Source: Oscarella lobularis
Lineage: Eukaryota
Reading direction: 5' to 3'
DNA: 64,000 nucleotides
Assembly (NCBI RefSeq): GCF_947507565.1
Contig: NC_089192.1
Span: 982,690 to 1,046,689, forward strand
Positions 4,700 through 64,000 of this stretch are shown here, piece by piece. The notes under the pieces are model-generated. The model did no database searches. It was not told the origin of the DNA and was given only the letters and a program-made list of their open reading frames with translations. A program made the translations under genes and the position numbers. Numbering within the stretch: the first letter of the stretch is position 1; every line of letters starts with the position of its first letter.

Positions 4700-6640
4700 A
4701 AGAGAAATCGCCTTAGTGAAGATTCTCACAGCTCTGATCCTAGAAGAGACGGGGGACCGCGTCTGGTTTGTTCTTCAGTCGATTCGTCGTCGCTATACAT
4801 GTCTGACGATCTCGGTGGGCCACTTCTCAAGCCTACGAGAGCAAGAAATCATTACCCAAGGCGATCCCTCAATGATCCTATGTTCCTAGACAATGCATGC
4901 AGTACCTCTTCGAGATGGCCTCGGATCTTCATCATCGAGAAGATTCCTAACAGTCGAGCCTCTTAACGACACGGATTTCATCTGCGGTTCGCTGTCTTCG
5001 CTATCGTCCTGAAGCATCTGAAGGAGACCGCCTCCACGACTGCGAGCCGATCGAGCCGATCGACGAGGCGAGTCAATTGGCCTACGTTCCTGACCACCAC
5101 GCCGCGAATTCGACCGTGGTGTCACGCTCCTCTTGCCCTCAACTAAAATAAGACATTGACGATTTCGAAATACCCAGTGCGAATCTCACCTAAACTTCTT
5201 GACGGCATCACGTCCAACCGGACTTGATTTGAACTATCGAACACTCGCCAGTCGCTGGTGCCGTCGTCGTCGTCGGCGTTGGCACCCAGCTGAGAGTTTA
5301 CGAGCGAGCCGGTCTTTCGTCTTTGTCCGATGCCCCTCGCGTTGGCCCTCTCCTCGCCGAACCAAACCGGAGTCGTGTTCGAACCCGGACCGACTTGAGA
5401 AGCGCTCTCGAAATCGTCATCGAAGTAGAAGTCGTCTCGCTCTGAAAAAAAAATGACGATACAGATAAGAGAGATACCTTTTTGTACTTGCCATTATCAG
5501 CAAGGGTGACTGTGCTGGCAAAATCAACGGTCGACTGATTGTCACTTAGTTGAAGTGATCCCCCTTCAATGAGCTGAGCGCAACGGGCGCAAATAATCTT
5601 CTGCTGTTGGCCACCATTGATAAGTTCAATGGGCGAAGTCTAATTTTTTTAGGTCAGCCAACGTTATTTACTGTATACATAGTCGTAGTGCACCCGTCTT
5701 ATTCCAACGCCACTGGCAGCAGAGAGATGGACCCCTTCTTCTTCCAGTACGTCAAGATTCTCTAAAAGGATTGCGTATCTTTTGGCAGTACTTTCATAGG
5801 AGAACATATCATTACCTAGTAGATCTGTACCTTCCCTATCGCCGCCGTCTTCAGTTGCAGCACTCTCCTTAGGCAATGCTTCACTCCGATTGGCATTTAG
5901 CAAGGACTACACAACATCAAGCGTGAATACATAGACAGTACAGTGCAACGTCAATTGATTATTATTTACAGATAGTCTACATCTTCGATCAGCTTTGGCT
6001 TTTCTAAGCTGCTTGGCACTCGGTCGTATTCTAAAAAGACCGAATCAATTAGTCAGTCACTTCTATACTACAAGACACACTTCTCGGTCCGTTTCTCTTC
6101 TCTATCGACCAACTGGCCTCTCTCACTCAACGGATACACCTGTTCCTCTTGAAAAGAATATTGTGCAACGTCATCGCTACGATATCTGCACGACGCGGAC
6201 GTTTCTGTTGCCATGGCAATCGAAGTCGACGCATCTCTCGGTTCCCTCGTCGTTCGCGTCGCGTTCGAATGCGGTTCGCTTTTAGACGCCGAGGATCGTA
6301 GGGGTCGAACGTTTCCGGGAGCGTTCAGCTTTGGTTTCGGCGTTGCGGCCGATTTCGTCGGCGTGTGCGACGCTGACGCCGAGACGCCGACGATGCGAGC
6401 CTCCTTTTTCTGTAGGACTCTTATCAGATAGCTTACGGGCTTGCTGGGCATGTCGTGGATCACTTTTGCCATTAGATCCTTGTAGAAACAAGGCGTTGAA
6501 AGTTTGTGGTTTGGCTGCACGACGCTTTCACTCACCTCAAACAGTTGGCCCACTTTGTGCTTGTCCAAGTAGGCCTGAACTCTTTGGGCAGCCATTCGAA
6601 AGAAAAAGGAGAACGGGAACTTCCGAGTGTTGTTGTGCAC
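4700..6640 (-). CDS. Multi-exon gene whose N-terminus resembles the PKA type-I regulatory-subunit dimerisation/docking (RIIa) domain. The C-terminal part is Ser/Arg-rich. Exon structure is only partly resolved.
   Basis: Minus ORF 6068..6640 with a 56-bp GT..AG intron removed gives MAAQRVQAYLDKHKVGQLFE|DLMAKVIHDMPSKPVSYLIRVLQKK. This resembles the RI-alpha D/D helix pattern (recalled consensus). Downstream exons at 5664-5903 and 5470-5643 are joined by GT..AG introns. No clear cNMP-binding FGELAL/PRAATV motifs were seen. Confidence 0.4.
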
Positions 6641-22903: not shown

Positions 22904-25865
22904 ATGAGCGGAGGCAGCAAACGTCTCAACCGCTATACATTCGATCCCGATCGGCCCCAACTCCAGGCACCGGACAGCGACGAAATGAATCCCCTCCTCG
23001 GCTCGCAGCAGAGCGGCGCTGCGCCGACGATGACGAGCAAGGGAATGTTTCGCATGTTCGCTTGCTCGTTTATCGCAACGATCGGCTCGCTGATCTTCGG
23101 CTATTGTCTCGGATTCTCGTCGCCGGCACTCGTCGATCCGTTGCTGGTCAAGGACATACTGGGCGAGTCGGCGCAGAATTGGTTTAGCGTAAGAACACAC
23201 GCGAATCGCAGCCACGGCGCGATTTTCCTAAGATATCGTCCATGCCACGCCCTCGTGTTGTAACACGTACTGCACATAGGTGTAGAGATTTCTTTGTTGT
23301 TGAACTCTAAACATAGAGAGGTGTACGTACTCGTACAACTATTAGTAAGAGTGTTACCAATACTTTTAGTAAGTGTTTAGTGGGAGGTATCAAAATTTGC
23401 CCCATGCTTGTTCTTCCAATCAAATTATTTTCTTGGATACAAATCTTATATTTTCTCTCGCAGTCTATTATCAATATTGGTGCTGCCATTGGCGGGGTTT
23501 CCACGTCGGCTATCGCCGTCAAATTCGGTCGCAAAGGAACGATTATGTTCGCCGGGCTACCGTATGCGATCGGCTGGCTGCTTGTTCTCCTTCCCGCCTA
23601 TCTGCACACGCTGGACGGCGTGTCCAACTCTCTTCTCGTGTCACTTCTTCTCGTTGGTCGCGCCCTATCAGGCGCCGGACTTGGTATAGCGTCTGGCATC
23701 ATTTCGGTGAGTGAAAGCAAATCATTCATTTCAGATGATCCCCCCTTAGTAGTTTGTACCCTGGGTGCATGAGCAGTTCTGAGTCAGACGCAAGTAGCAT
23801 AGGCACTTCATTTTATATGCAAAGGCTACTGAGATTAGATCTCAATAATGTAACATACAGGTGCTAGTTCATAATATTAATATTATTTATTTTGCGTCTT
23901 CTAGATCTACATTTCTGAAATAGCGACTCCCGCGTATCGCGGTTTCCTCGGCACATGCTTTCAACTCTCCGTCACGATAGGCCTTCTCCTATCCTACCTC
24001 TTGGGTCGTGAGCTCGCCCACTATCCGTGGCTGGCGACGGTCGCTCTCGTCCTCACGGCGAGTCTCGTCGTTCTCGGCCTTTGGATTCCCGAGAGTCCTC
24101 GCGCACTTCTCCTCAAGAATCGTCCCGACGAGGCGCGTCGCAGTCTCGAGTGGCTCCGCGGCGGCCCGGGCGTCGACGTCGGTCGCGAGTTGCAAGACAT
24201 CGAGAAGACCCTCATGGATCAGGAGCCTTTTGCCTTGGGCGAATTGTCGAAGCCGACCATATGGAAGCCGTTCGCCGTCGCCTTGGGTCTCATGTTCTTT
24301 CAGCAATTCTCCGGAATCAATGCCGTCGCTTTCTACGCGAGCGTCATCTTCGACGGCGTCGGCTCGTCATTTCAGGAGAAGAACGGTCCACTTATCATAG
24401 CCGTCGATCAGGTATATTAATTAATTAATTACTCGCAGGGTCCATAAGTAATTTTAGTAGAAATAATCTCACAAGGTCCATGAGTTATTTTAATAGAAAT
24501 AATCTCATTCTGTAGAAAATTACTCATAGGGTCCATGAGTACATTTTCTAGAGATAGTAATGGCAGGAAGAAAAAATTCTATTTTCCCTTAGCAGTCGGA
24601 CGCTGCCATTGACCACGCCATTATTATGCACGAGTGGTGTTCCTTGCGCCTGAACCGCAAGCGCCGCTCGCGCGCAACGAGTTAGACACTTACCTCTCAA
24701 AAGTGGGCGTTCCCGCCATCGCTACACTGTAACTTTTTATGCGCGAGTGGCGTTCCATGCGCCTGAACCGCAAGCGCCGCTCGCGCGCAACGAGTTAGAG
24801 ACACTTACCCCTCAAAAGTGGGCGTTCCCGCCATCGCTACACTGTAACTTTTTATGCGCGAGTGGCGTTCCATGCGCCTGAACCGCAAGCGCCGCTCGCG
24901 CGCAACGAGTTAGAGACACTTACCCCTCAAAAGTGGGCGTTCCCGCCACATCGCTACACTGTACTTTTTATGGGCGAGTGGCGTTCCTTGCGCCTGAACC
25001 GCAAGCGCGGCTTGCGCGCAACAACTTGCAGACACTTGTTGATCAAAAGTGGGCATTCCCGTCAACGCTATATTATGCTTTTTAATTGGATGCATTTTAC
25101 TAGAAATAATCTCAAGAAAATTACTCACAGGGTCCATGAGTAATTTTACTAGAAATAATCTCAAGGAAATTACTCACAGGGTCCACGAGTAATCTCATAG
25201 AAAATTACTCACAGGGTATCTATGGGTAATTTTACCTGAAATTTTCTCATAGAAAATTAATAACTTAAAAATAATGTAGTAGAACCATCCAGCGTGTTTA
25301 TTTTATTTCATATCTTTTTTTTTCCTTACCAAAGGTTGTTGCCACTGCTATCGCCGCTCTGGTTATGGATAAGCTGGGTCGACGAAAACTCCTCGTTCTC
25401 TCTGGAACACTCCAGTGTCTAAGCATCGTCGCGCTTGGCGTCTTCTTCCAAGTCAATCACTGCCTGAACGTGAAGGAGCCATCCGATTCACCCTGTACGT
25501 CGTCGCCCGAAGTCGGTCCGCTTTCCCTCGTCGCTCTCATCGTCTACATGACGGGCTTCTCGTTCGGCTGGGGCGCCATACCGTGGCTCCTCATGTCGGA
25601 GATATTGCCGTCGAAGGCGCGAACCATTGCCGGCGGCGTGTGCACGTTCTTCGTCTGGATGTGCTCCTTTGCTGTGACGTACATGTTCAATTCGTTGACG
25701 AAGTTGATTCACAAGAACGGCACGTTTTATTTCTTCGGCGGCTGGGCGTTCGCTTCCGTCATCTTCGTGCTGCTGTTCGTGCCGGAAACGAAAGGAAAGA
25801 CGCTGGAGGACATCGAAATGTACTTTGAACGTGGCAATAAAAGAGCAATCAATGACGATTCGTAA
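22904..25865 (+). CDS. Major-facilitator sugar transporter, Tret1/GLUT8-like. It has 4 coding exons (22904-23190, ~23463-23706, ~23905-24416, ~25334-25865) and a large third intron full of repeats.
   Basis: MFACSFIATIGSLIFGYCLGFSSPALVDPL. LLVGRALSGAGLGIASGIIS. IYISEIATPAYRGFLGTCFQLSVTIGLLLSYLLG. PESPRALLLKNRPDEARRSLEWLRG. FFQQFSGINAVAFYASVIF. Exon 4 has the GWGAIPWLLMSEILPSKARTIAGG and PETKGKTLEDIEMYFE sugar-porter signatures. Confidence 0.85.
24425..24560. repeat. Intronic tandem repeat with a unit of about 42 bp and 3 copies (attactca[c/t]agggtccatgagta[a/c]ttttactagaaataatctca).
   Basis: Direct reading. The same unit recurs at 25095-25260. Confidence 0.8.
24600..25085. repeat. Intronic tandem repeat of about 122 bp with 4 copies, the last one degenerate. 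Core is gcgagtggcgttcc[a/t]tgcgcctgaaccgcaagcgccgctcgcgcgcaacgagttagagacacttacccctcaaaagtgggcgttcccgcca(ca)tcgctacactgtaactttttat.
   Basis: Direct reading. Units start near 24600, 24725, 24845 and 24965. Confidence 0.85.
25095..25260. repeat. Second block of the 42-bp intronic tandem repeat, about 4 copies, in the same orientation as the 24425 block.
   Basis: Direct reading. Confidence 0.8.
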
Positions 25866-33533: not shown

Positions 33534-34535
33534 GTTTTGGTTTTCTAATGAGATGTTTTTGATCTTTTCACACCCGCTTGCAGGTAGCTAAGCAACGACG
33601 GCGACGTGACGTTTTCTTGCAGAATGGCGTTTCTTGAGGTTTTGTTTCATAGGCGCTCTGTTTCAAACGACCGGTTGCTAGGGTGCATGAAAGCGAAAGC
33701 TTTTCATGTAGACTAAAAATGATATGAATGTGTTGGGGTGCGTGGGAATGGTGTGGAGGGGGAGGAAGCAGGAAAAACAAGCGCTAGATGGTCCCCAAAA
33801 AGAGGCCTCGTCTTACAACTCGGTTAAGAATCCTTGGAAATCGTAAAGAACAAGGAGGAAACGTCGAACAAGACGCCCCGCGACCAGTTCCATCCTTCGA
33901 AAAATCGATAGATCGAAGCATGCGCGCAGTGAGCCTCGATCGTGTTTAGATCTCGATCTTAGACTCCCGCAAGGCTCAATCAAATCGTCCTCGTCTTCTT
34001 GTCGCTTCGAAAAGCGGCAATTTCTCGTGGCGTTCCTCGAATGTGAAATTTCGAAAGCGAAAGCGAATGGGAAGACCCTGTAGAGAAAAGAAATGCATCT
34101 AAACGTTAGATTCCTCTTCGGAATACGAAAAACGTCATCGACCACGAGGAGCCGCCATTATTCTAGCGCCAAAATCAGCCACGGTACGATACCGTAAAGA
34201 GTACGTGGAAAATTGGCCCGAGCTTTCTCGACGAACCAGCGACTCGTTGCCCCGGTGAATCGAAGACAATGCGGTCACCAACGGATATTGCACCTGCTTT
34301 CGTATAAAAGCCGCTGCGCCATGCGCACAACTTCAGTCCTGGTTAGGTGGGGAAAGCCAACGGGCGGAACCCTGGAGGTCGTCGGCGTCGGGAAAGCCTC
34401 GGTCATGTCAACATTAATCGTGCTCAGTCGGTTGCCGTTCCTTGCTGAAGCTGTGAGGTGCAGTGGATGAGCGTCGCGCGAGTTCTTCTCGTGGCGCGCG
34501 ATCGGCACTGGGAAAGTCACTAAGGGCTCGTTGGA

Positions 34536-34845
34536 TTTCATATATTGAGAAAAACAGTATAAGAGAAGAACAGAGAGACAGGGAACAACAGCAAAGGACG
34601 AAAAACAACAACAGCTAAAACATAAATACATACAAGGGAGGGGTTAATGGGTATTGGAATTGCAGCGTGTGCTAGCCACCGCCGCTGGATTTCATATATT
34701 GAGAAAAACAGTATAAGAGAAGAACAGAGAGACAGGGAACAACAGCAAAGGACGAAAAACAACAACAGCTAAAACATAAATACATACAAGGGAGGGGTTA
34801 ATGGGTATTGGAATTGCAGCGTGTGCTAGCCACCGCCGCAAGACT
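34536..34845. repeat. Tandem repeat with a 154-bp unit, 2 full copies plus a partial leading copy from about 34470.
   Basis: 34536-34689 and 34690-34843 are near-identical (ggatttcatatattgagaaaaacagtataagagaagaacagagagacagggaacaacagcaaaggacgaaaaacaacaacagctaaaacataaatacatacaagggaggggttaatgggtattggaattgcagcgtgtgctagccaccgccgc). Confidence 0.9.
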
Positions 34846-34899
34846 AAGGGAGGCTGTCTGACTAGGCAAGATCTTCTTAACCTTGTTGATAACGATTCT

Positions 34900-35376
34900 G
34901 GCATTTTGTCGTTGTAGGACGGACGAGATGGCTTGGGTCGCGAAGCCTGGCGTACCGCGTTAATACCGAGTGGGCGTCAGGCTAAGATCAGTTCACTTTC
35001 CTGCCAAAGAAACGCGTGGGGGGCCCAGTGTCTCGTGGCTGCTTCTCACTCGGCTTAGTGACCTATAGCCGAAGATAGCCCGACTTCCCAGACCAAATCA
35101 TAGCACGTTGTTGACCTCTGGCTGTGTGCGGACTCACGTTCGGCGCCCTCCCTCATCCCGGTAGTCCCGCTTCCTCTCAAGCGAAGGACTATGGCCCTTT
35201 TGGGTCGCGGTGCGACGCGGTCGGGGGGACGGTGTGGGAGAGCCGTTCTCGATCCAGGCCGCACCGTTCGTGGATGAGCCTATGATGCCACAACTCGCTC
35301 TCAATCATTTTTGGGCTACTCAGCGTTCGAACCTCCACGCGGTGTAGCCTGGATTACGCCAATGCGAACGCAGGAC
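34900..35376 (-). ncRNA. Candidate RNase MRP / RNase P family RNA. The P3-like helix favours MRP.
   Basis: The minus-strand transcript would begin GUCCUGCGUUCGCAUUGGCGUAAUCCAGGCUACACCGCGUGGAGG. This resembles the remembered 5' end of human RMRP (GUUCGUGCUGAAGGCCUGUAUCCUAGGCUACACACUGAGGAC). A long-range P3-like stem pairs AUCCAGGC with GCCUGGAU about 100 nt apart. A CR-I-like GGGAAGUCGGGCU (GNAANNUC) occurs at + strand 35077-35090. A CR-V-like ACUGAUCUUAGCCUGAC follows, and its AGCCUGAC can pair 8 bp with GUCGGGCU to form a P4 pseudoknot. No ORF is present and the region has no codon structure. Confidence 0.4.
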
Positions 35377-50364: not shown

Positions 50365-52521
50365 TCACGTTTCCGGTATCTGTGCGTAGTCGTGTTCTTC
50401 CTTTTTCGTTTCAGTGTAATCGCACCAACCGGGGGGCACATCGACGGTTTTATGACGAAACATAGCGGCGCCGCCGCCTCTCGCTTTTCCGTACGACAAC
50501 CGATCGAGATCCAACGACTGTTGATAGGCGATAGGCGACCGCACGTCCGCCGCCGGTCGAGGGGGTGGGAGTGGAGGTGGGCGGGACCCGGGCGCTAGAG
50601 GACTTTTCGATCCTCCGCTTTCGCGTTGGTACGACTTGCGCGGGAATACGGGCGACGCATAGCGCGGCGGCGACAGGGGGCTCGGCGATAGGGGGCTTGG
50701 CGGCAGCGGCGGCGAACACGTTACGCCGTCGTCCGATTCATCCTGTCCGGGAAGCGTCTTAGCGCGCTGGAGCACGTGCCTGTCCAACGAGGAACTGCGC
50801 GGGCGACTGCCGTGACGTCGCGTTGGCGGCGCCGACTTGCAGGCCGAATTGTCGTCGCCGTCTATCAAATCGAGATACGGATTCGAGCTCGACTTCTGTC
50901 CTTGCGTCGATCTGGCCTCCTCCCTCTGCCATTCGAGCAGATCTTCCATCGAATGCGCAAACCCCGTTCTCCGCGGCGACGGCGGCGGAACGCTCGCCAA
51001 TTCGGTGTGATCGATGTAAGTGGGATCTAAAGAAGAAAGGGCCCCGCGGGGAATCGTACGACGAATGACGTCCTAAAAGCGATTTATTCTCATACCTTCC
51101 GAAGGGGGCGGCGGTAGAGGCACGGGTGGCGGTAGAGGAGGCGGTCTGCGAGGCAGCGTAGCTAATCCACTTCGAATCGGGTCCGCTCGTTCGATTTCGC
51201 TCCTCCCGTTGCTATAGTTACTCGGAGGCGAATCTGAAAAAAAAACCATAAGATTCTTTTCCCCACTGCACGCCCTGTCTGCTCGCTCGTACCGCAGATA
51301 GATAGTCTCTCCATGCCGAAATTTGACATGTGTATATGCCGCGTCATGAGACTCGCGACTTTGCGTCGAAGCAGCTGAATGATCTCCTTGGAGTCGTTCG
51401 AGCAAAACTGGACCTCGTCGCCAACATAGCCCTGTTTTATCCTAATATAATAGAGAGCCCGTCCTCAATAACATATTGTCTCTATTATTGTTGAATAATT
51501 TAAATCCCACTTGGCTAATTTTATTGATACGGCACCCGTCGACTGATTGCTGCCCGGCGGCGGCTCGCGTTCGGTGAGGGGGCCCATTGACGACACGTGC
51601 CACGACGTCAATTCCTCGGCGTTGTTTTCGCGTCGTCGCAAAACGACGCTCGTGTCCGTGATAGAGAGAATGAGCGGCATGTGCGATCGGAGTGCGATGC
51701 CCGCGTTCGGGCTGTTCTCCTTGAGAACGCTGACGAGTTTTCGTCCGCCGCGATCGTCGACGAGCGCCACGTGGTAGTCCTGCGAGGGCTTGTCAATTTC
51801 TAGAGAGATGGTAAATAGTCAGAGATTCGCGGCGTTTTCTTTTTCATTCTCACGTCGAACGCCAACGTCTTCCAAACGTTTAAGCCACTTATCGACTTCC
51901 TCTGAGGAGTATGCGGCCATCTGATGTTTCATTCCGCTCACTAGGAATAAAAGTTAGGCAATAGATTGTGGCTACATAACTACGTCATCACGAGCGTATA
52001 TAGAAATCAGAGTCCTATAATAAGATAGGGCTCTGATAGAAATCAAGAGATTAGGAGTTGCCCGTTCTCGTTTTTTCCCCTCTCCTAAACCTTCCTCGTT
52101 TACCGTCCCCCCTTTTAAAAACTAATTCAATTAAATCGGAATTGGTCAAACCTAATGCGTTCTTTTCTACGAGCGCGCTTTTGTTCTTTAGTCTATCTTT
52201 CCCCCCCCTTACGCATGATTTCGAAAGCGTGCGGCCGGCCCTTCGCCGCCGGGCGCTTCCGGGTTCCGAGAGCCGAGCGGAGATCGATAGCGTCGATGAG
52301 CTTTGCTCTGTGACCTCCTTCGTAGTGTTTTAACATGAACGTCCCGTTCTCCTGTTCCAGTACGACGAAATAAGGCTTGTACTGATGCTGGACAATTACA
52401 AGTAGGTCGTGTTTACCGAGGCGGCTATGCACTGACAACGCCCTACTGACTTACGCCCGTTTTGTGCCTTCTCTTCACGTCTAGCCAGCCTTGTCCGAGC
52501 GAGTGAACGATGCTCTCCATG
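50365..52521 (-). CDS. Adaptor protein with an N-terminal PH domain, a PTB-like domain and a long Pro/Ser-rich tail, DOK/IRS/FRS-like. It has several exons. The 5' exon junction is not resolved.
   Basis: The minus exons read MESIVHSLGQGWLDVKRRHKTG... ; KHDLLVIVQHQYKPYFVVLEQENGTFMLKHYEGGHRAKLIDAIDLRSALGTRK...HAFEI ; SEEVDKWLKRLEDVG (PH C-helix) ; YHVALVDDRGGRKLVSVLKENSPNAGIALRSHMPLILSITDTSVVLRRREN and IKQGYVGDEVQFCSNDSKEIIQLL (PTB-like). The 3' exon (50365..51000) is 211 aa of PxxP/SP-rich tail, with the motifs PPLPPSPLSPSPLSPP and DYAQIPE. Confidence 0.45.
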
Positions 52522-52812
52522 GGGCAGTGTTTAGAAGATCGTTTGCGACTCGCTTCTCTCTTTCCTCTTTTCACAAAACCCGGATAACACGGGGTGAAAG
52601 GGCGTGTTTACGTGCATGCGAACCCGCCTCACTTTTCGCAGAACGTTTGGTAGGCTGTTTGTCTGCAAGTGTTTGCATATCTTTCCACTTTTAGGGCCAA
52701 TGTCTTTAGGTGCACAGTAGCAAAAAACACGAAACGTTTAGGCTAGATGCGGACAACAGTACGGCGGGTTTAGCAACGAAACTACAAAAAAATTGATTTG
52801 TTGCGAAATTGA

Positions 52813-54190
52813 TTAGCGTGCAAAAACATAGCCTATAGAAAAGACGTTTTTATTTCCATTGTCAGTAGTACTGCAAGCGGCTTGATTGCCGCAGGAATTT
52901 GAACGGAAGTTTATTCCACATTGTCCACCTTTCCGACCTCCTATTCCAATCCATGAATCAGCAGAGCCGCAGTCATATTGATTGTTTGATATTATTCCAA
53001 TTCGAACTTGCACAGCAACACTTTCGTCTCCCTTCACATTGAATCCCTCCTGTTTAGTTAAGATTTAGCTAAACATTCTTAATTTGGTCTAAACTCGTAC
53101 TCTGTTGCAGTTTGCTTGAAGAGAAGAACCGTGGATTAGGCTCTTCCAAGCACTGCGTCCTATTGAGGTCGAGTGGTATACGTTAGACGTTATGATGTGT
53201 CTCAACGAAGCCGCCCTCTTGTGCAAGGTCACCCAATTTGTCTCGTGGTTTGTTTTTAAACCAATAAGAACTTCTTTAAACGGTAGTGTCCAGAAGGAAG
53301 CCAGTTTAGCTTCGTTGTGGTCCAGATGAACGGAATCCTCGTTGTATGACGATGTCGTCGTCCACAAGGAGCTGTAGTAGTCAAACGTTTGCCTAGCACC
53401 GTTGACTTTCATTATAAGGGTCCACCCGCCTTCCTTGCAGTAAACCTATTCCGAACGTAGTAAAGATAGGTTCTGTGAGACGAGATCGTAGTTGTACCCT
53501 ATAAGCTGGATAGTTGGCTGACGGTTGGATCCAATAAACGCCCGGCTTGTAGCCGGCCAGTTTACTTAGATCTAGGCACGACGACGCTGGTTGAGCTTTG
53601 GATCCTCCGAGACTGCTAGTGGCATGTTCAGTCAGAAGAGAAATCCACTCCTTTCCATTGCAATATTGAATGACGTCGTCTATCGCGTTGTATTGCACTG
53701 ATCCTGCAAAAACGATATTTTGCGTTGTTTGCGTTTGATTTTGCCTTTGCTGGTGGTTAGTACCTGCATTTGGCACTGAACATGCCTCGTCAATATATTG
53801 CAGTTTCTGGGGTCCTGGACTACCTACAAGTCAACGGTTCACTGCAATTATATCACTTAGTTAATTAATTATTAATCACCCGCAGGTCCGGTGTCTCCTT
53901 TTTGGCCATTAGTTCCTGGCAAGCCGTGTCGTCCAGGTATGCCTGGTATGCCTAATCAAAAGATTAAATTTTCAGTGCAATTGCCAAATCAATGCATTAC
54001 CTGGGTTGCACTGACAGTCGCAAGAGACTTTGTCGTTCTAAACAGAGAAAAAAACAAAAAAACAATTTGATTGTGTCAATTATAGTAGCTGCATGCTGGA
54101 TCTTTCTGTTCCACCTTAGAAGTTTCAAGGGCTACGCTTTTAGCAGAAGTCCATACAATAGCGGCGACAAACAAAGTGATTATTTTCATT
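52813..54190 (-). CDS. Secreted short collagen plus C-terminal globular domain (fibrinogen-related / ficolin-like, divergent), copy A. It has a signal peptide, a short Gly-X-Y run and a domain of about 300 aa, in about 6 exons.
   Basis: MKIITLFVAAIVWTSA (signal). GIPGIPGRHGLPGTNGQKGDTGPAG (reverse complement of 53885-53950). SSCLDLSKLAGYKPGVYWIQPSANYPAYR | VYCKEGGWTLIMKVNGARQTFDYYSSLW resembles the FReD core (C.DL...G..SG.Y.I.P......VYC....GGWT..Q.R.DGS..F...W). The C-terminal half (CGINFRSNSCGNQAAC...NVFSIGYVFAR*) does not match canonical FReD or COLFI. Confidence 0.55.
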
Positions 54191-54379
54191 GAACACAATA
54201 TTGCCAGTTGTTGTGGCAGTTGCATGGAGCTCTTATATAAGTATCCAGAAAAATACGGAATGACGCATAAAGTAGGGACGACTACGGTTAATCTACGGGT
54301 GCGACTTCAAACCGTCGGTATAGTACGGCGGTCCCGCCGGTTCCGCCGGGGGTCGCCCGCGCATTTCGTAGTCCCGGAC

Positions 54380-54660
54380 ATGAAAGTCAGCGCTTCGTCT
54401 CGTCGGAGTATTCCGATTCCGACGTTCGCGACACGACGCACGACTTTCGTCGCGTTTCGCAAAACGTCCATTTGTCGTTCCACCCGCTCGAAGCGCCGCG
54501 CGAGCACCAGCGCGCGTCGAACGCGACGAAATTGGAACGCGTGTTCGCGAAGCCGTTCGTCGGCGATCTGGGCGCGCACGCCGACGGAATGTACGCACTG
54601 GCAAAATATCCGTCGCGTCTTTCGCGTCTCGCCTCGGGCTCAGGCAGCGTAAGGGAGGAG
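54380..54660 (+). pseudogene. Decayed duplicate of DCAF13 exon 1. The start region is frameshifted and the exon end is altered. It was copied along with collagen-FReD copy A.
   Basis: 54380-54660 aligns to 56528-56805 at roughly 85% identity. It retains LHPLEAPREHQRASNATKLERVFAKPFVGDLGAHADGMYALAKYPSRLSRLASGSG. The region after the ATG carries an indel (atgaaagtcagcgcttcgtctcgtcgg versus atgaaagtcaaagttctctctcgtcgc) that shifts the frame. No downstream DCAF13 exons follow it. Confidence 0.7.
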
Positions 54661-54748
54661 GAGGTATATTGTGAACAACAAACAAACACACAAACAAACA
54701 GAGACGGACAACACTGCGCGCAGTTCATCCATGAAGCTACAACATTGA

Positions 54749-56176
54749 TTAGCGTGCAAAAACATAGCCTATAGAAAAGACGTTTTTATTTCTATTGTCA
54801 GGAGTGCAAGCAGCTTGATTGCCGCAGGAATTTGAACGAAAGTTTACGCCGCATTGTCCTTGGAACAAATTCCGACCTCCTATTCCAAGCCACGAATCTG
54901 CGCTTTTGCAGTCATTTTCATTGTTTGAAAATATTCCAATTCGAACCCCTACGGCCGACTCTTCCTTCACATTGAATCCTTCCTGTTGGGTAAAGAATTA
55001 GTTAAACAATTTTTTTTAATTTTTTTTCTAAATGCGTCGTACTCTGTTGCAGTTCGGTTGAAGAGACGAGCCGTCAATGAGACTCTTCCAAGCACTGCGT
55101 CCTATTGAGGTCGAGTGGTATATGCCAGACGCTATGACGTGTCTCAACGAACTCGCACTCTTGCGAAAGGTCACCCAGTTCGTCTCGCCATTTGTTTTCA
55201 GACCGACAAGAACTTCGTTAAACGGTAGCGTCCAGAAGGAAGCCAGTTTAGCTTCGTTGTCGTCCAAATAAACGGAATCCTCATTATAAGAGAAACTATT
55301 CTTCCAGAAAGAGCTGTCGTAGTGAAAGGTCTGCTTAGCACCGTCGACTTTCATTATAAGAGTCCATCCGCCTTCCTTGCAGTAAACCTATTCTGTACGT
55401 TAGGATAGACTCGAAGATGAGAGGTCAGATTTTGTACCCTGTAAGCTGAGCGGTGGGCTGAAGGTTTGATCCAGTAAACGCCTGGCTTGTAGCCAGCCAG
55501 TTTACTTAGAGCTAGGCACGACGACGCTGGGTTAGCTTTGGATTCTCCGAGAGTGCTAGTCGCATGTTCGGTCAGAAGAGAAATCCACTCCTGTCCGTTG
55601 CAGTATTGAACGACGTCGTCTATCGCGTTGTATCGCACTGATCCTGTAAGAACGATCTTGTTGCCTTTGTCTGTCGCCTTTGCTGGTTGCTAATTACGTA
55701 CCTGTATTTGGCACTGAGCATGCTTCGATATATTGCAGTTTCTGCGGTCCTGGGCTTCCTGCAAAAAAATGCTGTACAGTTAGATAGGCTAACGTATGGG
55801 CTAATAGCTAAAGTACCCTTTGGACCAGCGGGTCCTGTGTCCCCTTTTGGACCAGGTGTGCCTATATCAAAAGAATAAATTTTTCAGTGAAACTGTTAAA
55901 TCAATACATTACTTGAGCGGCAGCGACATAAAGGGTCAATCTAGAAAAAAGAAAAATAGTTAGAGATCATGATTGTGATCATGATCATGAAATGAAGATT
56001 ATCATGGTCTATTAATTGTGATAGGAGTAGCAAAAATAAACTAATAGCTCTGCCGTACTGTTGCTCTGTTAGATGTGGCGACTTTTAGCTACCTGGTATG
56101 CTTCAACGTGTTCGCCTTGAGATGATGTCCAAACGACAACCACAGCAACCAAGGTGATCACTCTCAATGAACGCAT
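54749..56176 (-). CDS. Secreted short collagen plus fibrinogen-related-like protein, copy B, a tandem paralog of copy A.
   Basis: MRSLRVITLVAVVVVWTSSQG (signal). MRYNAIDDVVQYCNGQEWISLLTEHATSTLGESKANPASSCLALSKLAGYKPGVYWIKPSAHRSAYRV. MKVDGAKQTFHYDSSFWKNSFSYNEDSVYLDDNEAKLASFWTLPFNEVLVGLKTNGETNWVTFRKSASSLRHVIASGIYHSTSIGRSAWKSLIDGSSLQPNCN. ...CGVNFRSNSCGNQAACTPDNRNKNVFSIGYVFAR*. Confidence 0.55.
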
Positions 56177-56527
56177 TTTCGGTGAGGCAGGTTTACTGCA
56201 GCTGGCCTTGAATTGCGGCTTTTATAGCTAGAGTGGCGCTGTGTACTGATCATGCACTTCCTGCTGGTCTCTCCTACTTCCTACTTCCTTTACACTTGGT
56301 GTCGCATAGGAAGCAAGCCGGGGTCACGTCCTACTTACCTGCAAACCAGTGGTCACAGATAAAAGTTTGGGTGTGAGATAAATTAATTAATTGGGCTTTT
56401 TTCTTATGAGCACCCACTTAGTAAATCGTGCCAACAAAAACTGCAGAGGACAACAACTAAAAAATTTTTTCTCGGATCAACGGCACCGGCCAGAGCCTGG
56501 GCACCGCAGTGTGCTTTCCCGGATAAA

Positions 56528-58607
56528 GCATGAAAGTCAAAGTTCTCTCTCGTCGCCTCGCCGATTCGGGCGTTCGCGACACGACGCACGACCTTCGTCG
56601 CATTCCGCGAAACGTCGATCCGTCGCTCCATCCGCTCGAGGCGCCGCGCGAGTACCAGCGCGCGTTGAACGCGACGAAATTGGAGCGCGTGTTCGCGAAG
56701 CCGTTCGTCGGCGATCTAAGCGCGCACGCCGACGGCGTATACGCAATGGCAAAAGACCCGACGCGTCTGTCGCGTCTCGCTTCGGGATCATGCGACGGAC
56801 AGGTAAAATAAAATTAGAAAAGCGTAGCACGCCCACACTGTACGCATCTAGATTTGCATCTGGAGTCTTTCAAAACGTCAATGCGAGCACCAAATTAATG
56901 CGCATAGGTACAGCAGCGCGTTCCTTCGATAGATAGACCTGAAATTATTTTTCAGGGGATTTGTCAGAGGACTCTGTTTCAATCACACGGGATCTTCTCT
57001 TCTATCGGTATACACTGTTGCACGTTCTCAGGGGTTCTTTATGTGCTTGCCTATATATAATAACATAGATTGGCGACGATCAAATCATCAAGTTGTGGCC
57101 AATGGACGCCGACTTCGACGATTCCAAAGTCGTCGCCCAGCCATCGAATACGATACTAGGAAGCGTAAGGGTGGAGAAAGGCTTGGATTTTGTTTTAAGG
57201 AAAAAGGCGTGTGGTCTAGGCTATGTTCAATGGAATTGATCATCATTGGTCGAAGAGCGTCTTTGCTACGTGCAGCACCCAGGTGGACGTTTGGGATGAA
57301 GAGAGGTCGGAGCCAATTCGATCTTTCACGTGGGGAAGCGAGACGACGACGAGCGTCCGATTTAATCCCGTCGAAGTATGTAGACGTGAAATGGGCAATA
57401 ATATAGATTCATTAATTCATTGGTGGGATTTTTGATAGAGAAATGTTCTAGCAAGCACTGGATCGGACAGGACAATTGCATTGTACGATATCAGAGGAGC
57501 GACTCCTCTCAAAAAAGTGCAGAGGAGAAATTTTTTTCGTATTAGAGAAATCAATATTAGTGTTTCTTTAGGTAGTACTAGAAATGAGGACTAATTCAAT
57601 CTGCTGGAATCCAATGGAGGTAAGGGGGAAGAGAGACAGACGTGGAGTATTTTTAATAGATGAATCACTTTGCTAGGCTTTTAATTTTACTGCAGCCAAC
57701 GAAGATACAAAGTACACAAAGGTTGTCTCTTCCCCAATGCATCACCTACTATTTTCGCTAGTCTGTACACGTTCGATATGAGACGTCTCGACCGGGCTCT
57801 GAACGTGCACAAGGATCACGTAATGGCAGGCAAGTGAAAAGAAAAAAATTGAGATAAAATTTCAAAGATGACGTGAAACTTTTTTCATTTTTATAGTCCT
57901 GGACTGCGACTATTCGCCAACGGGTAGGGAATTCGTTTCAGGCAGCTACGATAAGACAATACGAATATTTCCTTTTGACAAGGGACACAGTCGGTGAGTA
58001 TAGATAATAATTAATTTTTTATTTACACATATGGTTTGGTTTTATTAGAGAGGTCTATCACACGAAACGAATGCAGAGGGTCTTTTGCGTTCGTTGGAGT
58101 GCCGACAGTCGATTTATCTATTCAGGAAGCGAGGAAACTAATATCAGGTTAGCAGTAGGCTGCAATGTTGTATATAATATTTCAATTATTTCCTTCTACA
58201 GGATTTGGAAGGCTGATGCTTCAGAGAGACTTGGACCTGTATAGGAAACATATAAGTCATTGTAGGCCAAGAGACAATGTTTTTCTTTTCTAGATATCTG
58301 CACGGCAGAAAATATCCAAAAATTACGGAAACAAACTGAAAGAGAAGTTCAAAGATCATCCACAGATTCGAAGAATTTCCAAGTGCTGTCTTCTCCATTC
58401 CTCAAAGTAACCTTGAGAAATGTATTTCTTCCTTTTCTTAGACATCGTCACGTGCCCAAGCTCATTTATAAGCAGACGAAAGAGAGACGAGAAATGCTCA
58501 AGGCGAGACGGCGAAAGGAGGAGAACGTTCGACTTCACACGAAGCCTGAAAATCAGCCAGAGCGGACGGCCGAAAGGAAGAAACCCATTGTTTCGACTCT
58601 ATCTTAA
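56528..58607 (+). CDS. DCAF13: DDB1- and CUL4-associated factor 13 (Sof1 family WD40 protein), in about 11 exons.
   Basis: MKVKVLSRRLADSGVRDTTHDLRRIPRNVDPSLHPLEAPREYQRALNATKLERVFAKPFVGDLSAHADGVYAMAKDPTRLSRLASGSCDGQ. IDHHWSKSVFATCSTQVDVWDEERSEPIRSFTWGSETTTSVRFNPVE. TIALYDIRGATPLKKV. LYTFDMRRLDRALNVHKDHVMA. VLDCDYSPTGREFVSGSYDKTIRIFPFDKGHSR. EVYHTKRMQRVFCVRWSADSRFIYSGSEETNIR. The Sof1 C-terminus reads RHVPKLIYKQTKERREMLKARRRKEENVRLHTKPENQPERTAERKKPIVSTLS*. Confidence 0.9.
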
Positions 58608-59258
58608 ACAAGTAGAGTACATTGCGTAGAGTCCTAATTAACTTTCTTTAATTATGTGGAGCGTCAGGTGATATGTGCGCACTCACTGCGCATGCTTATT
58701 CTATTCAAAATCGGCGTCCGCGATTTTTGAGCTTTTGCAGTTACTGTCCGCTCGTCTTGCGTCGCTACGCAGAACGAAATTCGTTAATCGGCGTCTCCTT
58801 GAAGGTAAGGAGCCCTGCGGGATGATACTAGACCCCGCGGAGCCCCCCTTAGGGTTCACCACGACGTCTCTCCTTTTTCCTCTGCTCTAAAGCTGTCGTA
58901 GTCAAAACCACGAACCATACGCTCTTTTCTTATCGATCTCGAACTCAATAAGCGTTCGATCGCGACGCCCAAGTTTCTTTTGGATCGTATTTCGAACGGA
59001 GCCCCCGCCCCTTCGGTTTCGACGTCAACTGGAGACTGTGGAGACAAGATATATATCTATGGTCATATATTTGAATTACAAGGACAAAGGTACGTAGTAC
59101 AACGACAAAGATACATAAAAGCTGATTCAAATTGTTTCTTTGTATAGATGGTTTTGCGTGCGCTCTCCTCTGTCGTCACGGTGAAATGGTCTATCTCTGG
59201 CGGTCGATCCAACAACTTCATGAAGACGAAGGGGGCTGCTGCACCCAAGGTACTTTCT

Positions 59259-59702
59259 CATTGATTCTCCCTGCGTCAGTTGTTTTGTCGTGTAGTCGTT
59301 CCTGCAATCCGACGAGGCAGACGCAGCCATCCCTCTGTGGCCAAGAGCGATAAATAGGCCGTACCTCTGCAGAGGCTATAGAGTCGCCTCCCCGCGTAAG
59401 GCTGAGCACTGGCGGGTAAATCAGTGACGCCCCTTGGAATTGCACCTGCGAGTGGACTGACATCCCAGCTGCCACTCGCAGGTGCAATTCCAAGGGGCGT
59501 CACTGATTTACCCGCCAGTGCTCTGCCTTACGCGGGGAGGCGACTCTATAGCCTCTGCAGAGGTGACACCTATTTAACCTCTTGGCGACCGAGGGACGAC
59601 TGCGTCTGTCAAGTGTTTGCCTCGTCTGATTGGATGCATCTGTCTCGTCGGATTGGAAGAGCCACCACTACACGACAAAACAACTGATGTGGGGAGAATC
59701 AA
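59259..59702. repeat. Large palindrome (foldback) of about 444 bp. The inner arms are perfect over about 105 bp around a 16-nt loop. The outer arms are about 100 bp longer but imperfect, with indels.
   Basis: 59349-59455 (cctctgcagaggctatagagtcgcctccccgcgtaaggctgagcactggcgggtaaatcagtgacgccccttggaattgcacctgcgagtgg) is the exact reverse complement of 59472-59578. The outer arm 59259-59348 pairs with 59579-59702 (cattgattctcc.../...ggagaatcaa). Confidence 0.9.
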
Positions 59703-60416
59703 TAACATAGTACCTGTGGAGATGAAACCAAGGTAGACGCAATCCCAAGAGACGGCTTCTTCTACTGGAAGCACGGGCGATAGAGACGAATAGTAGGAAG
59801 AACGCTCCAAAGGGTTCGATCAAAACGAGGCCGATGAACGATGGTGGAATCTCCAAAGAGACCCCACTAGGGTCCGGAGGCTACCGTTGTCGAAAACAGA
59901 CGAACTGTACCTAGAGAAACGAAAGTTATTATATGAGGCGAAGATGGAAGTTAGTTTAGACGTAGGGAAAAAACGCGAGAATTTCTGTAAAGGGGCCCCA
60001 CCAGTCGGCGTCGCCCATTTTGCTCTTACTCGCTTTCTAGTGAACGCTTCTCGTCTCAGAGGTATTCGTTGCGAATGGAACGGCTGAATTAGCTCATTCA
60101 CGACGGTGGAATCCTCAGAGACCCCACTACGGTCTTTCGACGCAATCCTTCCTTCATCCAGTTTTCCACTTCGCCTCTCGTCTTCGCATTCGGTTGGAAA
60201 CGCGAACAGAGCTCAAACGGCCGCTAAAAAACCGAAAAACGCTAACGAACTTAACGTCGACTGCGACTGCGCGAGGCTGCGTCACGCTCACGCGCCGCGC
60301 GCGGTCCAATCCGCATAACTATCCGCATGACGTATATGTTTAGAACCGCGATTCCCAATACATCACCGCAACTTACGCAGACACACACACGCAGAGACGT
60401 CACTATTCTCGCACGA

Positions 60417-62687
60417 CTAATAATCCATTTCCTCGTCTCTCTGTTCAGGAGCGAGTTTGATTAGGTCGTCGATCCTCAGTATAGTGATGGCCGCTTCTGT
60501 GGCGAATTTCAGGCACTTGACTTTGCTCATTGTCGGCTCCAAAACGCCGGCCTCTTTGTTATCTTTCACCTTTCCCTCGTACAAATCGAGCCCATACCTA
60601 TCCGAGAAGAATAACTCACAGAGTCGATAGTCTCTCTTTGTATTTTTCTTACCATTTGTATTGGATCTTTCCCTTGTCCACTTGCGATGCATTGTGAAAC
60701 GCTCTGAGCTTTGCTACGAGATCAGCAGCGTCTTGGGCCGCATTCACCGCCAAAATGCGCGGAATCGCTAACAAGGACTGCGCAAAGGACGCAATAGCCA
60801 GCTGCTCTTTCGAATGCTAAGCACACCAAACAAAAAACTAGCCAATATCCCAAATTATTTATTTAATTTTCTCACCAACATGGTAGCATAGTTCTCTAGA
60901 TAAATCGATAGGGCCGCCTCGACGGCGCCACCGCCGGCAACGAGGGACTTCGACTCGATGACGCGACGCACAACGCAGAGCGCGTCGTGAAGCGACCGTT
61001 CCATCTCGTCGACCATGAAATCGTTGGCACCGCGGAGAATCACGGAAGCGGCACTATGAGCCTTGGGTCTAGCGAAAGCAGAGTCTCTCTCTCTATGTCT
61101 ATGTTTATGCAGTAAAGAGCGTCTTGCTCTCTCTCTTAGAGACTTCTAAGTGTTGACTCTATACTAAGGCTTGCTTACTTTTTGATGAGTATGAGCTCGT
61201 CGTCGCATACTCTCTCCTGCACCACTTCTTCCGCTTCTCCGAGAAACGAACTATCGAACGAATCTTCGCCTTCTAAATTCGCTAGAGTGGATACGAGTTG
61301 ACCTAGAAAAAAAAAACCATTAGGCTTCGTTTAATTAATTAGTATTATTTTCTGACCCCCGGTTGCCCTAGCAATTCTCTTCAAATCCGCCTTCTTGCAT
61401 CGACGCACGGCCATCGCTCCCGCTTCGACGAAATACTTCAAGCAGAGATCGTCGATTCCGCCCGTCGTCAAGACGACGTTGGCACCGGCACCCAATATCT
61501 TCTCGATCTTCTCCTTCGTTATGTCGGCCTCGCGCTTGCGTATCCCTTCCAACTTCTCCGGATCCTCGACAACGACTTGAACGCCGAAAGCCATTTTCGA
61601 TTTTTGAAGATTGAAATCGATGCAGGCGATCTTCGGCGACGCGACGCGCTTCACCAAGGCTACGGGGAAACACGCAGTTAAAAAAATAAATAAATAAATA
61701 AATAAATAAATATTTATCTATGATATTACCTTGGGAAGCGACCGTGCAATTGAGCGCGTATCCGTTCACGAGTACGCTCTCCTGGGCGCTCGCGCCGTGC
61801 GCCTTCAGGACGTTGATCGATTTGATTGGACAACGCACCTCGCCTTTCACATTGGTGCGCTTCACGGCGAGACAAGCGTCGACGACTAGCTTCGAAAAAA
61901 ATTCGGAATCACTAAGAGAAATATATCAAAAAACGGGAAGACAAAATTTCAATATTTCTCATTACTTTCCGATGAGTTTTGATGACATTGACGTCTTCGC
62001 CACATTGACGAGACAGTCCTTGCCCAAGTCGTCCGAACTGACGGCCAAATGATCTTGAATGTACTTGCAAGCCTCTCTATAGGGGGGAGAATCTCGCATA
62101 GAGAACGGCAACATCGAATATTCCACGACGAAACCTGCACGCGAGCCTATATCCGCTTATAATCGACGTCGGATGGATCTTAGTCTTGACCAGGTCCTCG
62201 GCATTCTTCAATAATTCGGCGGCAATAATTACCTAAAAAAGAATAATAAAAAAATTTAAAAAAAAAGAGAAGTCTTCTCTATTCTTCGCTTACCACAGAC
62301 GTCGTTCCGTCGCCGACCTCCTCGTCTTGCAATTGAGCCAATTCCACAAGCACTTTCGCGGCTGGATGCTCCACTTCGAGCAAATTTAGAATCGTCGCGC
62401 CATCATTTGTTATGGTCACATCCTAGAGACGATACGCGAGCTCGAAACGTTCGAGGGGGCCCCCGACTTACTCCGACGTCGTCGACGAGCATCTTGTCGA
62501 GTCCCACTGGGCCTAGAGAGCTCTTCACGATGTTCGCGATCGACGAAGCGGCCATTACTGGAGATTTTTCGAAGGCGTCAGCTTTGGGATCTTCGCGGGT
62601 CGTGGAGAGCGTACCGTTTTGCGAGCGAACGCTATCGCCCGACGTTCTTTCGCCGCGAACGCTCAACTGTCCTTGCGAATCGGCCAT
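60417..62687 (-). CDS. TCP1: T-complex protein 1 subunit alpha (CCT1 chaperonin), in about 10 exons.
   Basis: [309 protein letters not shown]. Confidence 0.9.
61683..61712. repeat. (AAATA)n microsatellite in a TCP1 intron.
   Basis: aaataaataaataaataaataaataaata. Confidence 0.9.
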
Positions 62688-62877
62688 GTTTTTCGGTGAA
62701 GCGACTGCGCATGCGTCGACAGCACGTGGATTTAATCCGATTTTAATCACCTACGAAAAAATTGATTCATGAAATGGTTACTAATCCCGTGCACCTCTAC
62801 GCCCACATTTGTCTAACTGGGATTAGCAATAAAAAGGGCATATAAAGTTTTACTTGGAAAAGTCTTTTGCATTGAGC

Positions 62878-64000
62878 TCATTTTGACGTCACGTCGCCGA
62901 TTTCGTTTTCTTCGTCGTCGCCCAACAGCTCGGGGCACTTCATTTCGCCTTTTGTTATTTTATCCATAGCGCACAGCAGATCATAATTGATTTCATCCGA
63001 GACTACGGAATCCTTCTTATACTTTGGATGGCTGCGTATAAATTTGCGCATCCACTGTGCACCAGTCAATACTTTGCCTGAAGAATAAAGGGAAAAACCA
63101 AGTCAATGATTTTTTGCACTAGTGCCTGACTGACTGACTGACCTGCTGCTCTCTTTTGCATAAGATTCAAGTAGCGACGTATGGTAGAATGTGTATCCGT
63201 GTCTAGATCAATCAAATCCAAGTAACGCCATATCAGAGGAACCAGACCAGGAAATCCTCCATCCTAAAAAGTGATAATAGTTCAAATAATATCAATTAAA
63301 GTCGACGCAACTAATTTACTATTCCGTTAATAACGGCATCAATCGACATCAATTCATATTCAGGTTCTCCTTCGTTCGTCTCCAAATCTTCCCACCAGAA
63401 AAAACGTAAATAATTTTAAAAATAGGTTTGATTGTAACCGACCTGAAAACGGCTGACGCCTAAAATAAAATTCCTCCGCTTGAACTGCGTCTCTTCTCTG
63501 CGCTTTATCCATGTTCTCGTCAACCTAATAGATCGATAGTCGCCACAGAAATATACGTGGATCTTCTTACTTTGGAAATAGGCACGTAAAAGGTGAGCCC
63601 TAAAGACAAAATGGCTCTCGTAAGAAGAATGACGAAGACGGAGTAGGCGGCATTCTCAAAGTCCGTCACTTGAACCTACAAAACAAAGAGAGAAAAATAA
63701 ACAAAAATGAAGTTAATTAATTAATTAATTAAACGCACATCGCAGACTCGAAATTCGACTCTCCATCCAATATCTGAATTGGGTGGCGGCGGCTTGAATC
63801 GCATCGACTGCCAGTTAGTTGACTGAATGTTCTAATAAAACAATGCTCTATTACTAATTAATTAAATTAAAAATTCTAAGCGAAATTAGTATTTGGGGAG
63901 GTCAACCTACTTCAAAATGGTCAGACTCGTTTTCCAGATTTTGGTAAATTTTTTCAGAGAATAGAGACACTGTGTCGCGAATGAAAAGATGCGCAATGTG
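62878..64000 (-). CDS. 3' part of a multi-exon gene of unknown function. It continues past the window end.
   Basis: Minus exons joined by GT..AG introns: [35 protein letters not shown] | ... | [41 protein letters not shown] | (K)[64 protein letters not shown]. One hydrophobic segment is present. No confident family assignment was made. Confidence 0.3.

Follow-up and report, generated by a model that had tools for sequence, protein, structure and literature searches.

The window, by which we mean the whole 64-kb stretch of DNA analysed here, carries a large palindrome in the spacer between two convergent genes, DCAF13 and TCP1. Read from left to right, the features in and around this spacer are the following.

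58383-58607, + strand: last coding exon of DCAF13 (Pfam Sof1, E = 8e-14)
59209-59245, - strand: left outer tail of the repeat unit, outside the recognisable palindrome and weakly conserved among copies
59246-59362, - strand: left outer arm, a consensus-like partial unit
59363-59455, - strand: left half of the core, with 1 mismatch in 93 against 59472-59564
59456-59471, no strand: loop of 16 nt, ACTGACATCCCAGCTG, belonging to the small hairpin of the unit itself
59472-59564, + strand: right half of the core, left-arm-like and family-consensus-like
59565-59716, + strand: right outer arm, an old, degenerate partial unit
59717-59785, + strand: right outer tail of the unit, weakly conserved, with a second CCAAGGTA at 59728-59735
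60417-60692, - strand: open reading frame (ORF) containing the last coding exon of TCP1 alpha (Pfam Cpn60_TCP1, profile positions 440-488 of 490)

The stop codons of DCAF13 and TCP1 lie 638 and 698 nt, respectively, from the palindrome, and the TCP1 assignment is also backed by named homologues. Other genes in the neighbourhood encode Death, Ig, SNF-transporter and exostosin domains, which mark the genome as metazoan. No gene is called in the DCAF13-TCP1 interval in any of the three contigs that contain it. Between the two stops (58550-60450) the + strand lacks both AATAAA and ATTAAA, and the sole signal of the - strand, an ATTAAA (TTTAAT at 58647), is reached only after the palindrome, 40 nt downstream of the DCAF13 stop. 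The 3' flank of TCP1, between the palindrome and the TCP1 stop, also contains an imperfect direct repeat of ~37 bp (ACGAyGGTGGAATC.TC.AGAGACCCCACTAsGGTC), at 59838-59874 and 60100-60134, 262 bp apart.

A gapped arm-to-arm alignment defines the full inverted repeat as 59245-59719 (475 bp), with a left arm of 211 nt (59245-59455) and a right arm of 248 nt (59472-59719). An inverted-repeat scan identifies it as the largest inverted repeat of the window. If the tails are included, homology to the repeat family reaches about 59209-59785 (~577 bp in the family alignment). The near-perfect core comprises 93 bp on each side of the loop (59363-59455 and 59472-59564), and its single mismatch, T at 59403 opposite T at 59524, separates exact runs of 52 and 40 bp. 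Just beyond the core, the arm alignment passes through a 1-nt indel and then a 4-nt divergent patch. The outer arms are ~77-87% identical, with 21 substitutions in 116 positions (18%) and 38 gap columns between left and right; all three insertions are in the right arm, and one of them, 34 nt long (59605-59638), is an old, diverged tandem duplicate of the next ~20 nt. As RNA, the palindrome folds at -381 kcal/mol (z = -31.6), a value reached by none of 100 shuffled sequences, and the core as DNA folds at -147 kcal/mol (z = -31.4). The palindrome is far beyond chance.

These results confirm the initial annotation in placing a large palindrome with a 16-nt loop between convergent DCAF13 and TCP1, the genes being recognised by their Sof1 and Cpn60_TCP1 domains, and they revise most of its geometry. 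The inner arms, described there as perfect over 105-107 bp, differ at six positions when 59349-59455 is compared without gaps to 59472-59578, and the extent of ~444 bp was an underestimate. Its account of outer arms interrupted by indels holds as far as the indels go, but the pairing continues farther than was given. The statement that no ORF spans the structure does not stand, as an 87-aa ORF (59424-59687, + strand) and a 91-aa ORF (59218-59493, - strand) both cross the loop. Neither contains a Pfam domain, and a large word-indexed protein search with the 87-aa ORF retrieved no homologue. Searches by blastn, Pfam and protein comparison found no similarity between the palindrome or its ORFs and any protein-coding gene.

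We also considered a small exon at 59148-59249 (34 codons, ending in AAG directly followed by GTAC) that would make the palindrome intronic. This candidate was rejected because its "donor" is the conserved terminal block of the repeat, because upstream of it the copies align with indels whose lengths are not divisible by three, and because no downstream exon was found. A search for an orthologous empty site with DCAF13 exon 1 returned a best match of only 68% identity. In the nearest TCP1 relatives (L009 and L010), the exons are 64-73% identical and TCP1 is not beside DCAF13, so the spacer has no counterpart for comparison.

Several other repeats occur in the window. Positions 1-1882 are occupied by a 41-bp satellite (46 copies, 84% identity, G+C 0.32) that continues past the window start in L001 and L002; its consensus, TTAGGCCCTTAGAATCAAAGTTTAGGCCCTCAATTTTATAT, includes two TTAGGC motifs, the nematode-type telomere hexamer. 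A 115-bp tandem repeat (24624-25070, 3.9 copies, 91%) precedes a 49-bp repeat in two copies (25094-25193), and a self-palindromic 31-mer, AAAATTACTCAyAGGGTCCATGAGTA..TTT, flanks these tandem repeats at 24516 and 25117. The arrangement may represent a small repeat-bearing element inside the region of a sugar-transporter gene. Upstream of DCAF13 there is an old local duplication of ~1 kb (52808-53829 and 54744-55764, 82% identity). A 265-bp copy of DCAF13 exon 1, probably a pseudo-exon, lies 2.1 kb upstream of the real exon (54379-54642 versus 56529-56790, 86% identical), and it contains a weak inverted pair at 54425-54456 and 54520-54551. Contig ptg000030l has a haplotype-specific insertion (L004 14132-18183, equivalent to window ~34620-35136) with a LINE-like 1223-aa ORF that contains reverse-transcriptase and endonuclease domains and that the window haplotype lacks; the insertion adjoins a perfect 154-bp tandem duplication (window 34532-34839).

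Repeat family and arm mosaic

Both arms of the palindrome are partial copies of a non-coding interspersed repeat of ~550 bp. An exhaustive HMMER search with the 91-aa ORF matched four representatives (P0241-P0244) at 73-91% identity, whose clusters contain about 10 ORF variants on at least nine contigs, all from ENA. These sole homologues of the ORF are themselves ORFs read from other copies of the repeat. Every repeat locus that was fetched sits in ENA assembly ERZ18545485, a long-read assembly with hifiasm-style contig names, in which the family was previously undescribed. The four loci verified at the DNA level are the window and the following three.

L011 (with L012), contig ptg000061l near 1.009 Mb: 817-bp palindrome
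L013, contig ptg000061l near 174 kb: one non-palindromic solo unit
L014 (= L015), contigs atg000803l and atg000864l: one non-palindromic solo unit

The L011 palindrome consists of 318-nt arms at 98% identity, 47-nt outer arms at 94% and a 59-nt centre. The representative P0250 has the same centre in a different sequence elsewhere on its contig, and therefore the long palindromic form occurs at no fewer than two loci. The solo units align with each other over about 550 bp and carry ~85 bp that are missing from the palindromes. The short-form junction of the window is absent from all other ORF variants examined. The window holds no second copy by blastn (word size 7), a search of the window and the fetched loci with a profile of the unit added no further copies, and a 27-mer taken from the core had no exact match in JGI metagenomes or IMG/VR. 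The initial annotation had proposed a search for other copies in the genome, and such copies exist as both solo and palindromic loci.

The unit profile (nhmmer) matches the palindrome twice, as a left unit at 59236-59495 and a right unit at 59391-59778. A sharply conserved outer block, CAAGGTAyT..ATTGATTCTCCCCGCATCAGTTGTTTTGTCGTGTAGT, is common to all six arms, and next to it comes a weakly conserved tail of 40-70 bp. The left outer arm opens with this common terminal block (CAAGGTAyT..ATTGATTCTCCC..CAGTTGTTTTGTCGTGTAGT), and its outer tail can be aligned with those of L013 and L014 (TGCAGCAGCC..TTCAyGA..). On the other side, the right tail, ..CACGGGCGATAGAG, aligns to the L014 tail, ..CACGGGTGAGCAGG. 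Every unit also has an internal short hairpin with a 10-bp stem and a 16-nt loop, CTGCGAGTGG - CAGCTGGGATGTCAGT - CCACTC(G/A)CAG. In the window, the left stem of this hairpin is the last 10 nt of the left core (59446-59455, CTGCGAGTGG) and the right stem is the first 10 nt of the right core (CCACTCGCAG), so that the palindrome is centred exactly on the hairpin of the unit. In the L011 palindrome, the centre coincides with or adjoins another mini-palindrome of the unit, TTTATT-T-AATAAA, and hence the axes of both palindromic forms fall on or next to pre-existing short inverted repeats.

The L011 locus also includes an internally repetitive ORF of more than 1000 aa (5200-6456), located 1.7 kb from the palindrome and running off the locus, whose self-matches (82-98% identity) are offset by multiples of ~45 bp. 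Across the family, the core (59363-59455 and its equivalents in L011, L013 and L014) shows 0-8 differences in 93 positions versus 5-31 in 116 for the outer arm. This stronger conservation could reflect functional constraint in source copies or family-wide conversion.

The two arms of the window palindrome differ in their relationship to the rest of the family, as the following differences show.

Left arm against right arm: core 1/93; outer 21/116 substitutions plus 38 gap columns
Left arm against L011R: core 2/93; outer 10/116
Left arm against L013: core 6/92; outer 11/116
Right arm against the four copies at other loci: core 3-5/93; outer 20-31/115

The left arm is 94.5% identical to L011 and 94.6% to L014, and outside the core L011 and L013 resemble it more closely than its own partner arm does. 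When the arms are measured against the consensus of the family, 51 alignment columns are private to the right outer arm (the 34-nt duplication included) and one to the left outer arm. Counted as substitutions, the asymmetry is roughly 13 to 1 (binomial p about 0.001). Arms that were born identical should decay symmetrically, and the 51 private columns versus one therefore speak against a common birth. The step in identity is abrupt at 59564/59565: the right core is left-arm-like, whereas the adjoining 44 nt, which are well conserved in other copies, have ~10 changes in the right arm. The core is the most conserved part of the family, so the identity of its two halves could partly reflect slow divergence; even if the core evolved three times more slowly, however, at most one difference in 93 positions would be unlikely (p about 0.007, by our own estimate).

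By these comparisons, the right outer arm is old and decayed, and the left arm, the loop and the inner 93 nt of the right arm are younger and near the consensus. The right half of the core was probably copied or converted recently, and the near-perfect core is best read as a recent copy or conversion tract across the centre, laid over an older inverted pair. The initial annotation had taken perfect arms as a sign of youth and had offered an inverted duplication as one explanation. The first view gives way to a mosaic of an old right outer arm with a consensus-like left arm and core. The second, in so far as it implied duplication of local unique sequence, is not supported, given the membership of both arms in the family and the closer similarity of the left arm, outside the core, to other loci. 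Near-perfect palindrome arms need not mean a young insertion, and here a perfect core is embedded in an old, asymmetric structure.

The other explanation in the initial annotation was a recently inserted MITE or foldback transposon, which would have arrived as a ready-made palindrome. Parts of this description fit: the sequence is short (below ~800 bp), non-coding, multi-copy and dispersed, and its longer palindromic form is not confined to a single locus. Both ends also have an 8-bp direct repeat, CCAAGGTA, nearby, for which chance predicts about 0.01 occurrences in the boundary windows that were scanned. The recent insertion and the target-site duplication (TSD) do not fit. We rejected the CCAAGGTA pair (59245 and 59728; hAT/P-like) as a TSD since family homology runs through it and other copies lack it, and a TA duplication in AGG-TA...TA-CCT was rejected on the same ground of continuous family homology. 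No convincing TSD flanks the terminal inverted repeats at the window, nor is there one at L011, L013 or L014, although the element ends are uncertain; ends, TSDs and element class (DNA or retro) are all judged from these four loci only. The asymmetric decay of the arms, the confinement of the short-form junction to the window and the presence of the element in all three haplotype contigs also argue against a recent arrival, which we consider unlikely.

The LINE reverse-transcriptase/endonuclease ORF in L004, the sole mobile-element ORF seen, has no similarity to the unit. Features of a SINE are missing, as the window has no tRNA (ARAGORN), A-rich tails are lacking and the search for a TSD gave none. 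An Rfam search of L011, L013 and L014 revealed no head derived from a small RNA, and neither Rfam nor ARAGORN supports an origin of the unit from a hammerhead, another ribozyme or a tRNA. Helitron-like ends (3' CTAG) were rejected by inspection, given that the flanking bases and the hairpin do not fit.

Haplotype contigs and the loop

Exact-protein look-ups trace the window to ERZ18545485. The palindrome is present in three contigs of this assembly (ptg000061l, atg000334l and atg001182l) and is thus fixed in all the haplotype contigs sampled. Arms and flanks are identical among the three, and the 1.8-kb intergenic region differs at the 16-nt loop only. Contig ptg000061l reads CAGCTGGGATGTCAGT here, exactly the reverse complement of the ACTGACATCCCAGCTG found in the others and equal to it in length, and the adjoining 256 bp on one side and 289 bp on the other are identical between contigs. 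The T/T mismatch at 59403/59524 and the stems are unchanged in the flipped contig, which places the inversion breakpoints within the inner 52-bp perfect stems. The contigs share 13.6 kb with many SNPs and indels, yet over 56500-61305 (4.8 kb) the loop inversion is the sole variant; the inversion is therefore very recent relative to point mutation. The two alleles are read from assembled contigs, and the flipped one from a single contig.

Template switching between the arms of inverted repeats is known to lead to arm homogenisation and reversible inversion of the spacer (PMC8604942). When the loop of a perfect hairpin is inverted, the stems show no trace of the event, and perfect stems can be both created and maintained by template switching (PMC8794818; PMC5453318). 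The exact reverse complement, equal length and perfect 52-bp inner arms observed here agree with this pattern, and the loop inversion is a known signature of template switching or of recombination between inverted-repeat arms. The locus is a clean natural example from a metazoan germline, in which the 16-nt loop between perfect stems of 52 bp is inverted while the 4.8-kb haplotype background around it does not vary.

Two further candidates for small inversions among the haplotype variants (54646-54680 and 62239-62284) were discarded because the alleles are not reverse complements, and a flip at the centre of the L011/L012 palindrome was dismissed because its alleles do not differ. The window haplotype equals atg000334l at 50430-64000 (compared to L006, L007 and L008) but equals ptg000061l at 20491-42170. 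There are three haplotype combinations at the locus, all of which share the invariant block 56500-61305, implying that the sample is a pool or polyploid, or that the contigs switch phase.

The initial annotation had raised the possibility that the palindrome stems from a chimeric read, to which a missing-adapter read may be added, and a flipped loop might in principle be a consensus error. Library artefacts can create palindromes, and the flip is seen in one contig only. However, unique sequence flanks the palindrome on either side, its outer arms have diverged and contain indels, it recurs in three contigs, and the family has other palindromic copies as well as solo copies. The contig with the flipped loop is a long primary one, and the loop in it is cleanly and exactly reverse-complemented, unlike a random consensus error. 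A chimeric-read origin of the palindrome is thereby excluded, and an assembly or sequencing artefact of any kind is highly improbable.

Origin and comparison with known systems

We think it probable that the palindrome is a short, centre-truncated palindromic copy of the dispersed non-coding repeat, the core of which was generated by strand or template switching at a short hairpin. In the window, two partial units meet head to head exactly at the hairpin of the unit, and its 10-bp stem is thereby extended to one of more than 200 bp. In the proposed scheme, a nascent strand would copy the left unit through its short hairpin, snap back to copy about 93-105 nt of itself, and then return by homology to the old inverted right unit, deleting the intervening sequence. 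Gene conversion within the palindrome would give an equivalent result for the core. A later switch, or reciprocal recombination within the inner 52-bp perfect stems, could then flip the loop on one haplotype. A general model of template switching has been described (PMC5453318). For the palindrome, the switch and the order of events are reconstructed from end products that can be read directly from the DNA, namely the anatomy, the family membership, the arm mosaic, the centring on the hairpin and the loop inversion; reciprocal arm recombination or cruciform processing would lead to the same inversion. The contrast between a younger left unit and an old, inverted right unit may be due to a second insertion, to ectopic conversion of one arm or to a different subfamily; such conversion, if it affected the left arm, could add to the asymmetry.

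The junction might alternatively have arisen by deletion from a long L011-type palindrome, if slippage between symmetric 10-bp direct repeats had removed a centre of ~380 bp. The left arm of L011 holds the required arrangement (CTGCGAGTGG-ACTGACATCCCGGCTG-CCACTCGCAG), with its mirror in the right arm, and a deletion between these repeats would leave an identical junction. The long form exists in more than one copy, and palindromes are known to suffer central deletions (reviewed in PMC7999016). The two loop orientations would then indicate which repeat pair was used, or a later flip. Deletion alone, however, leaves both the age asymmetry of the arms and the identity step at 59564/59565 without an account, and unless an inversion followed, the two orientations would need two independent deletions on otherwise identical haplotypes. 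We regard this route as rather unlikely, though less so than the arrival of a ready-made transposon.

A stem of this length also raises the question of a hairpin RNA (hpRNA) or endo-siRNA locus, in which read-through from DCAF13 or TCP1 would transcribe the palindrome and Dicer would make siRNAs against the repeat family. Such loci are well documented in Drosophila (PMC10317233). The structural prerequisite, a long inverted repeat, is present, and the predicted stem is very stable, with a nearly perfect 93-bp core and more than 200 bp in total. With no canonical poly(A) signal before the palindrome on either strand (the + strand of the spacer has none, and the single - strand signal at 58647 lies beyond it), read-through is conceivable, where the use of AATAAA is an assumption for the host. 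The multi-copy family to which the arms are homologous would be a possible target. On the other side, the arms have homology to a non-coding repeat family only and to no protein-coding gene, and no gene is called in the interval. Matches to Rfam miRNA precursors all fall below their gathering thresholds (bits/gathering: MIR9776 50.9/100, mir-1756 40.3/100, mir-2576 34.8/83 and mir-8510 26.6/60). They are centred on the perfect hairpin, one of them on both strands, which marks them as generic long-hairpin matches, and the unrelated centre of L011 gives a match of the same kind. A functional locus of this type is about as doubtful as a recent transposon insertion. A stricter version, in which the palindrome would be a working hairpin-RNA gene expressed by read-through, with siRNAs against its own family and a core kept perfect by recurrent template switching, is more doubtful still; were it true, the flip/flop loop would be a visible trace of that recurrent switching. 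In a related and similarly doubtful view, the family would spread as hairpin DNA that snaps back at its internal short inverted repeats.

The palindrome is best seen as structurally active but probably inert repeat DNA between two convergent genes. It is a clear but ordinary case of inverted-repeat dynamics, and no function is indicated. With solo, long-palindrome and short-palindrome forms in a single family, it would, given reads or population samples, offer a convenient system for measuring flip rates and the birth of palindromes.

Foldback elements and palindromic MITEs, for example the Drosophila FB elements and human MADE1-type elements, are among the known repeats to which the palindrome can be compared. 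Like them, it is short, non-coding and multi-copy, its inverted repeats make up nearly the whole element, and the family is palindromic at more than one locus; the long form recurs (P0250), the short form is seen at the window only. Unlike them, the window copy shows no convincing TSD, its arms are of unequal age and it has no known autonomous partner, and the family also includes non-palindromic solo units with the ~85 bp absent from the palindromes. The arms of Drosophila FB elements consist of tandem subrepeats, whereas no tandem array was found in the window arms, where the 34-nt local duplication on the right, an old one, stands alone.

Transposon copies that lie inverted and close together, as in inverted Alu pairs, are also comparable. 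The palindrome shares with these and with hpRNA loci (PMC10317233) the presence of two inverted copies, a very short spacer and a long hairpin or cruciform-prone structure; its transcript, were there one, would be a dsRNA substrate homologous to the repeat family. The arms of hpRNA loci typically derive from a protein-coding target gene, in contrast to the window arms, which derive from a non-coding repeat.

Palindromes primed by snap-back or fold-back at short inverted repeats (PMC7999016), including those of the ODIRA model (PMC10766183), resemble the present case in that the axes of the window and L011 palindromes are on or next to an inverted repeat of the solo unit. Those models cover inverted duplications and amplifications from kilobases to megabases (PMC7999016; PMC10766183), whereas the structure described here is interstitial, measures 0.5 kb and involves no copy-number gain of flanking DNA.

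The palindrome is also like the template-switch cases that follow the Ripley model (PMC8604942, PMC8794818, PMC5453318). As in those, an exact reverse complement of equal length takes the place of the spacer without any change to the stems, and a (near-)perfect core lies beside diverged outer sequence; here the inversion is a recent polymorphism at the level of haplotypes. The scale is much larger. Published yeast examples have arms of about 5-16 bp and spacers of 2-5 bp, the loops of the rRNA cases mostly measure 4 nt and no pattern exceeds 59 bp (PMC8604942, PMC8794818, PMC5453318), compared to a 16-nt loop, 52-bp perfect stems and an apparent copied tract of 93-105 nt in the window. With stems this long, ordinary homologous recombination between the arms is an equally good mechanism. 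To a specialist, the scale of the flip and its family context would be notable rather than surprising, and they fit within the current understanding of inverted repeats without overturning it.
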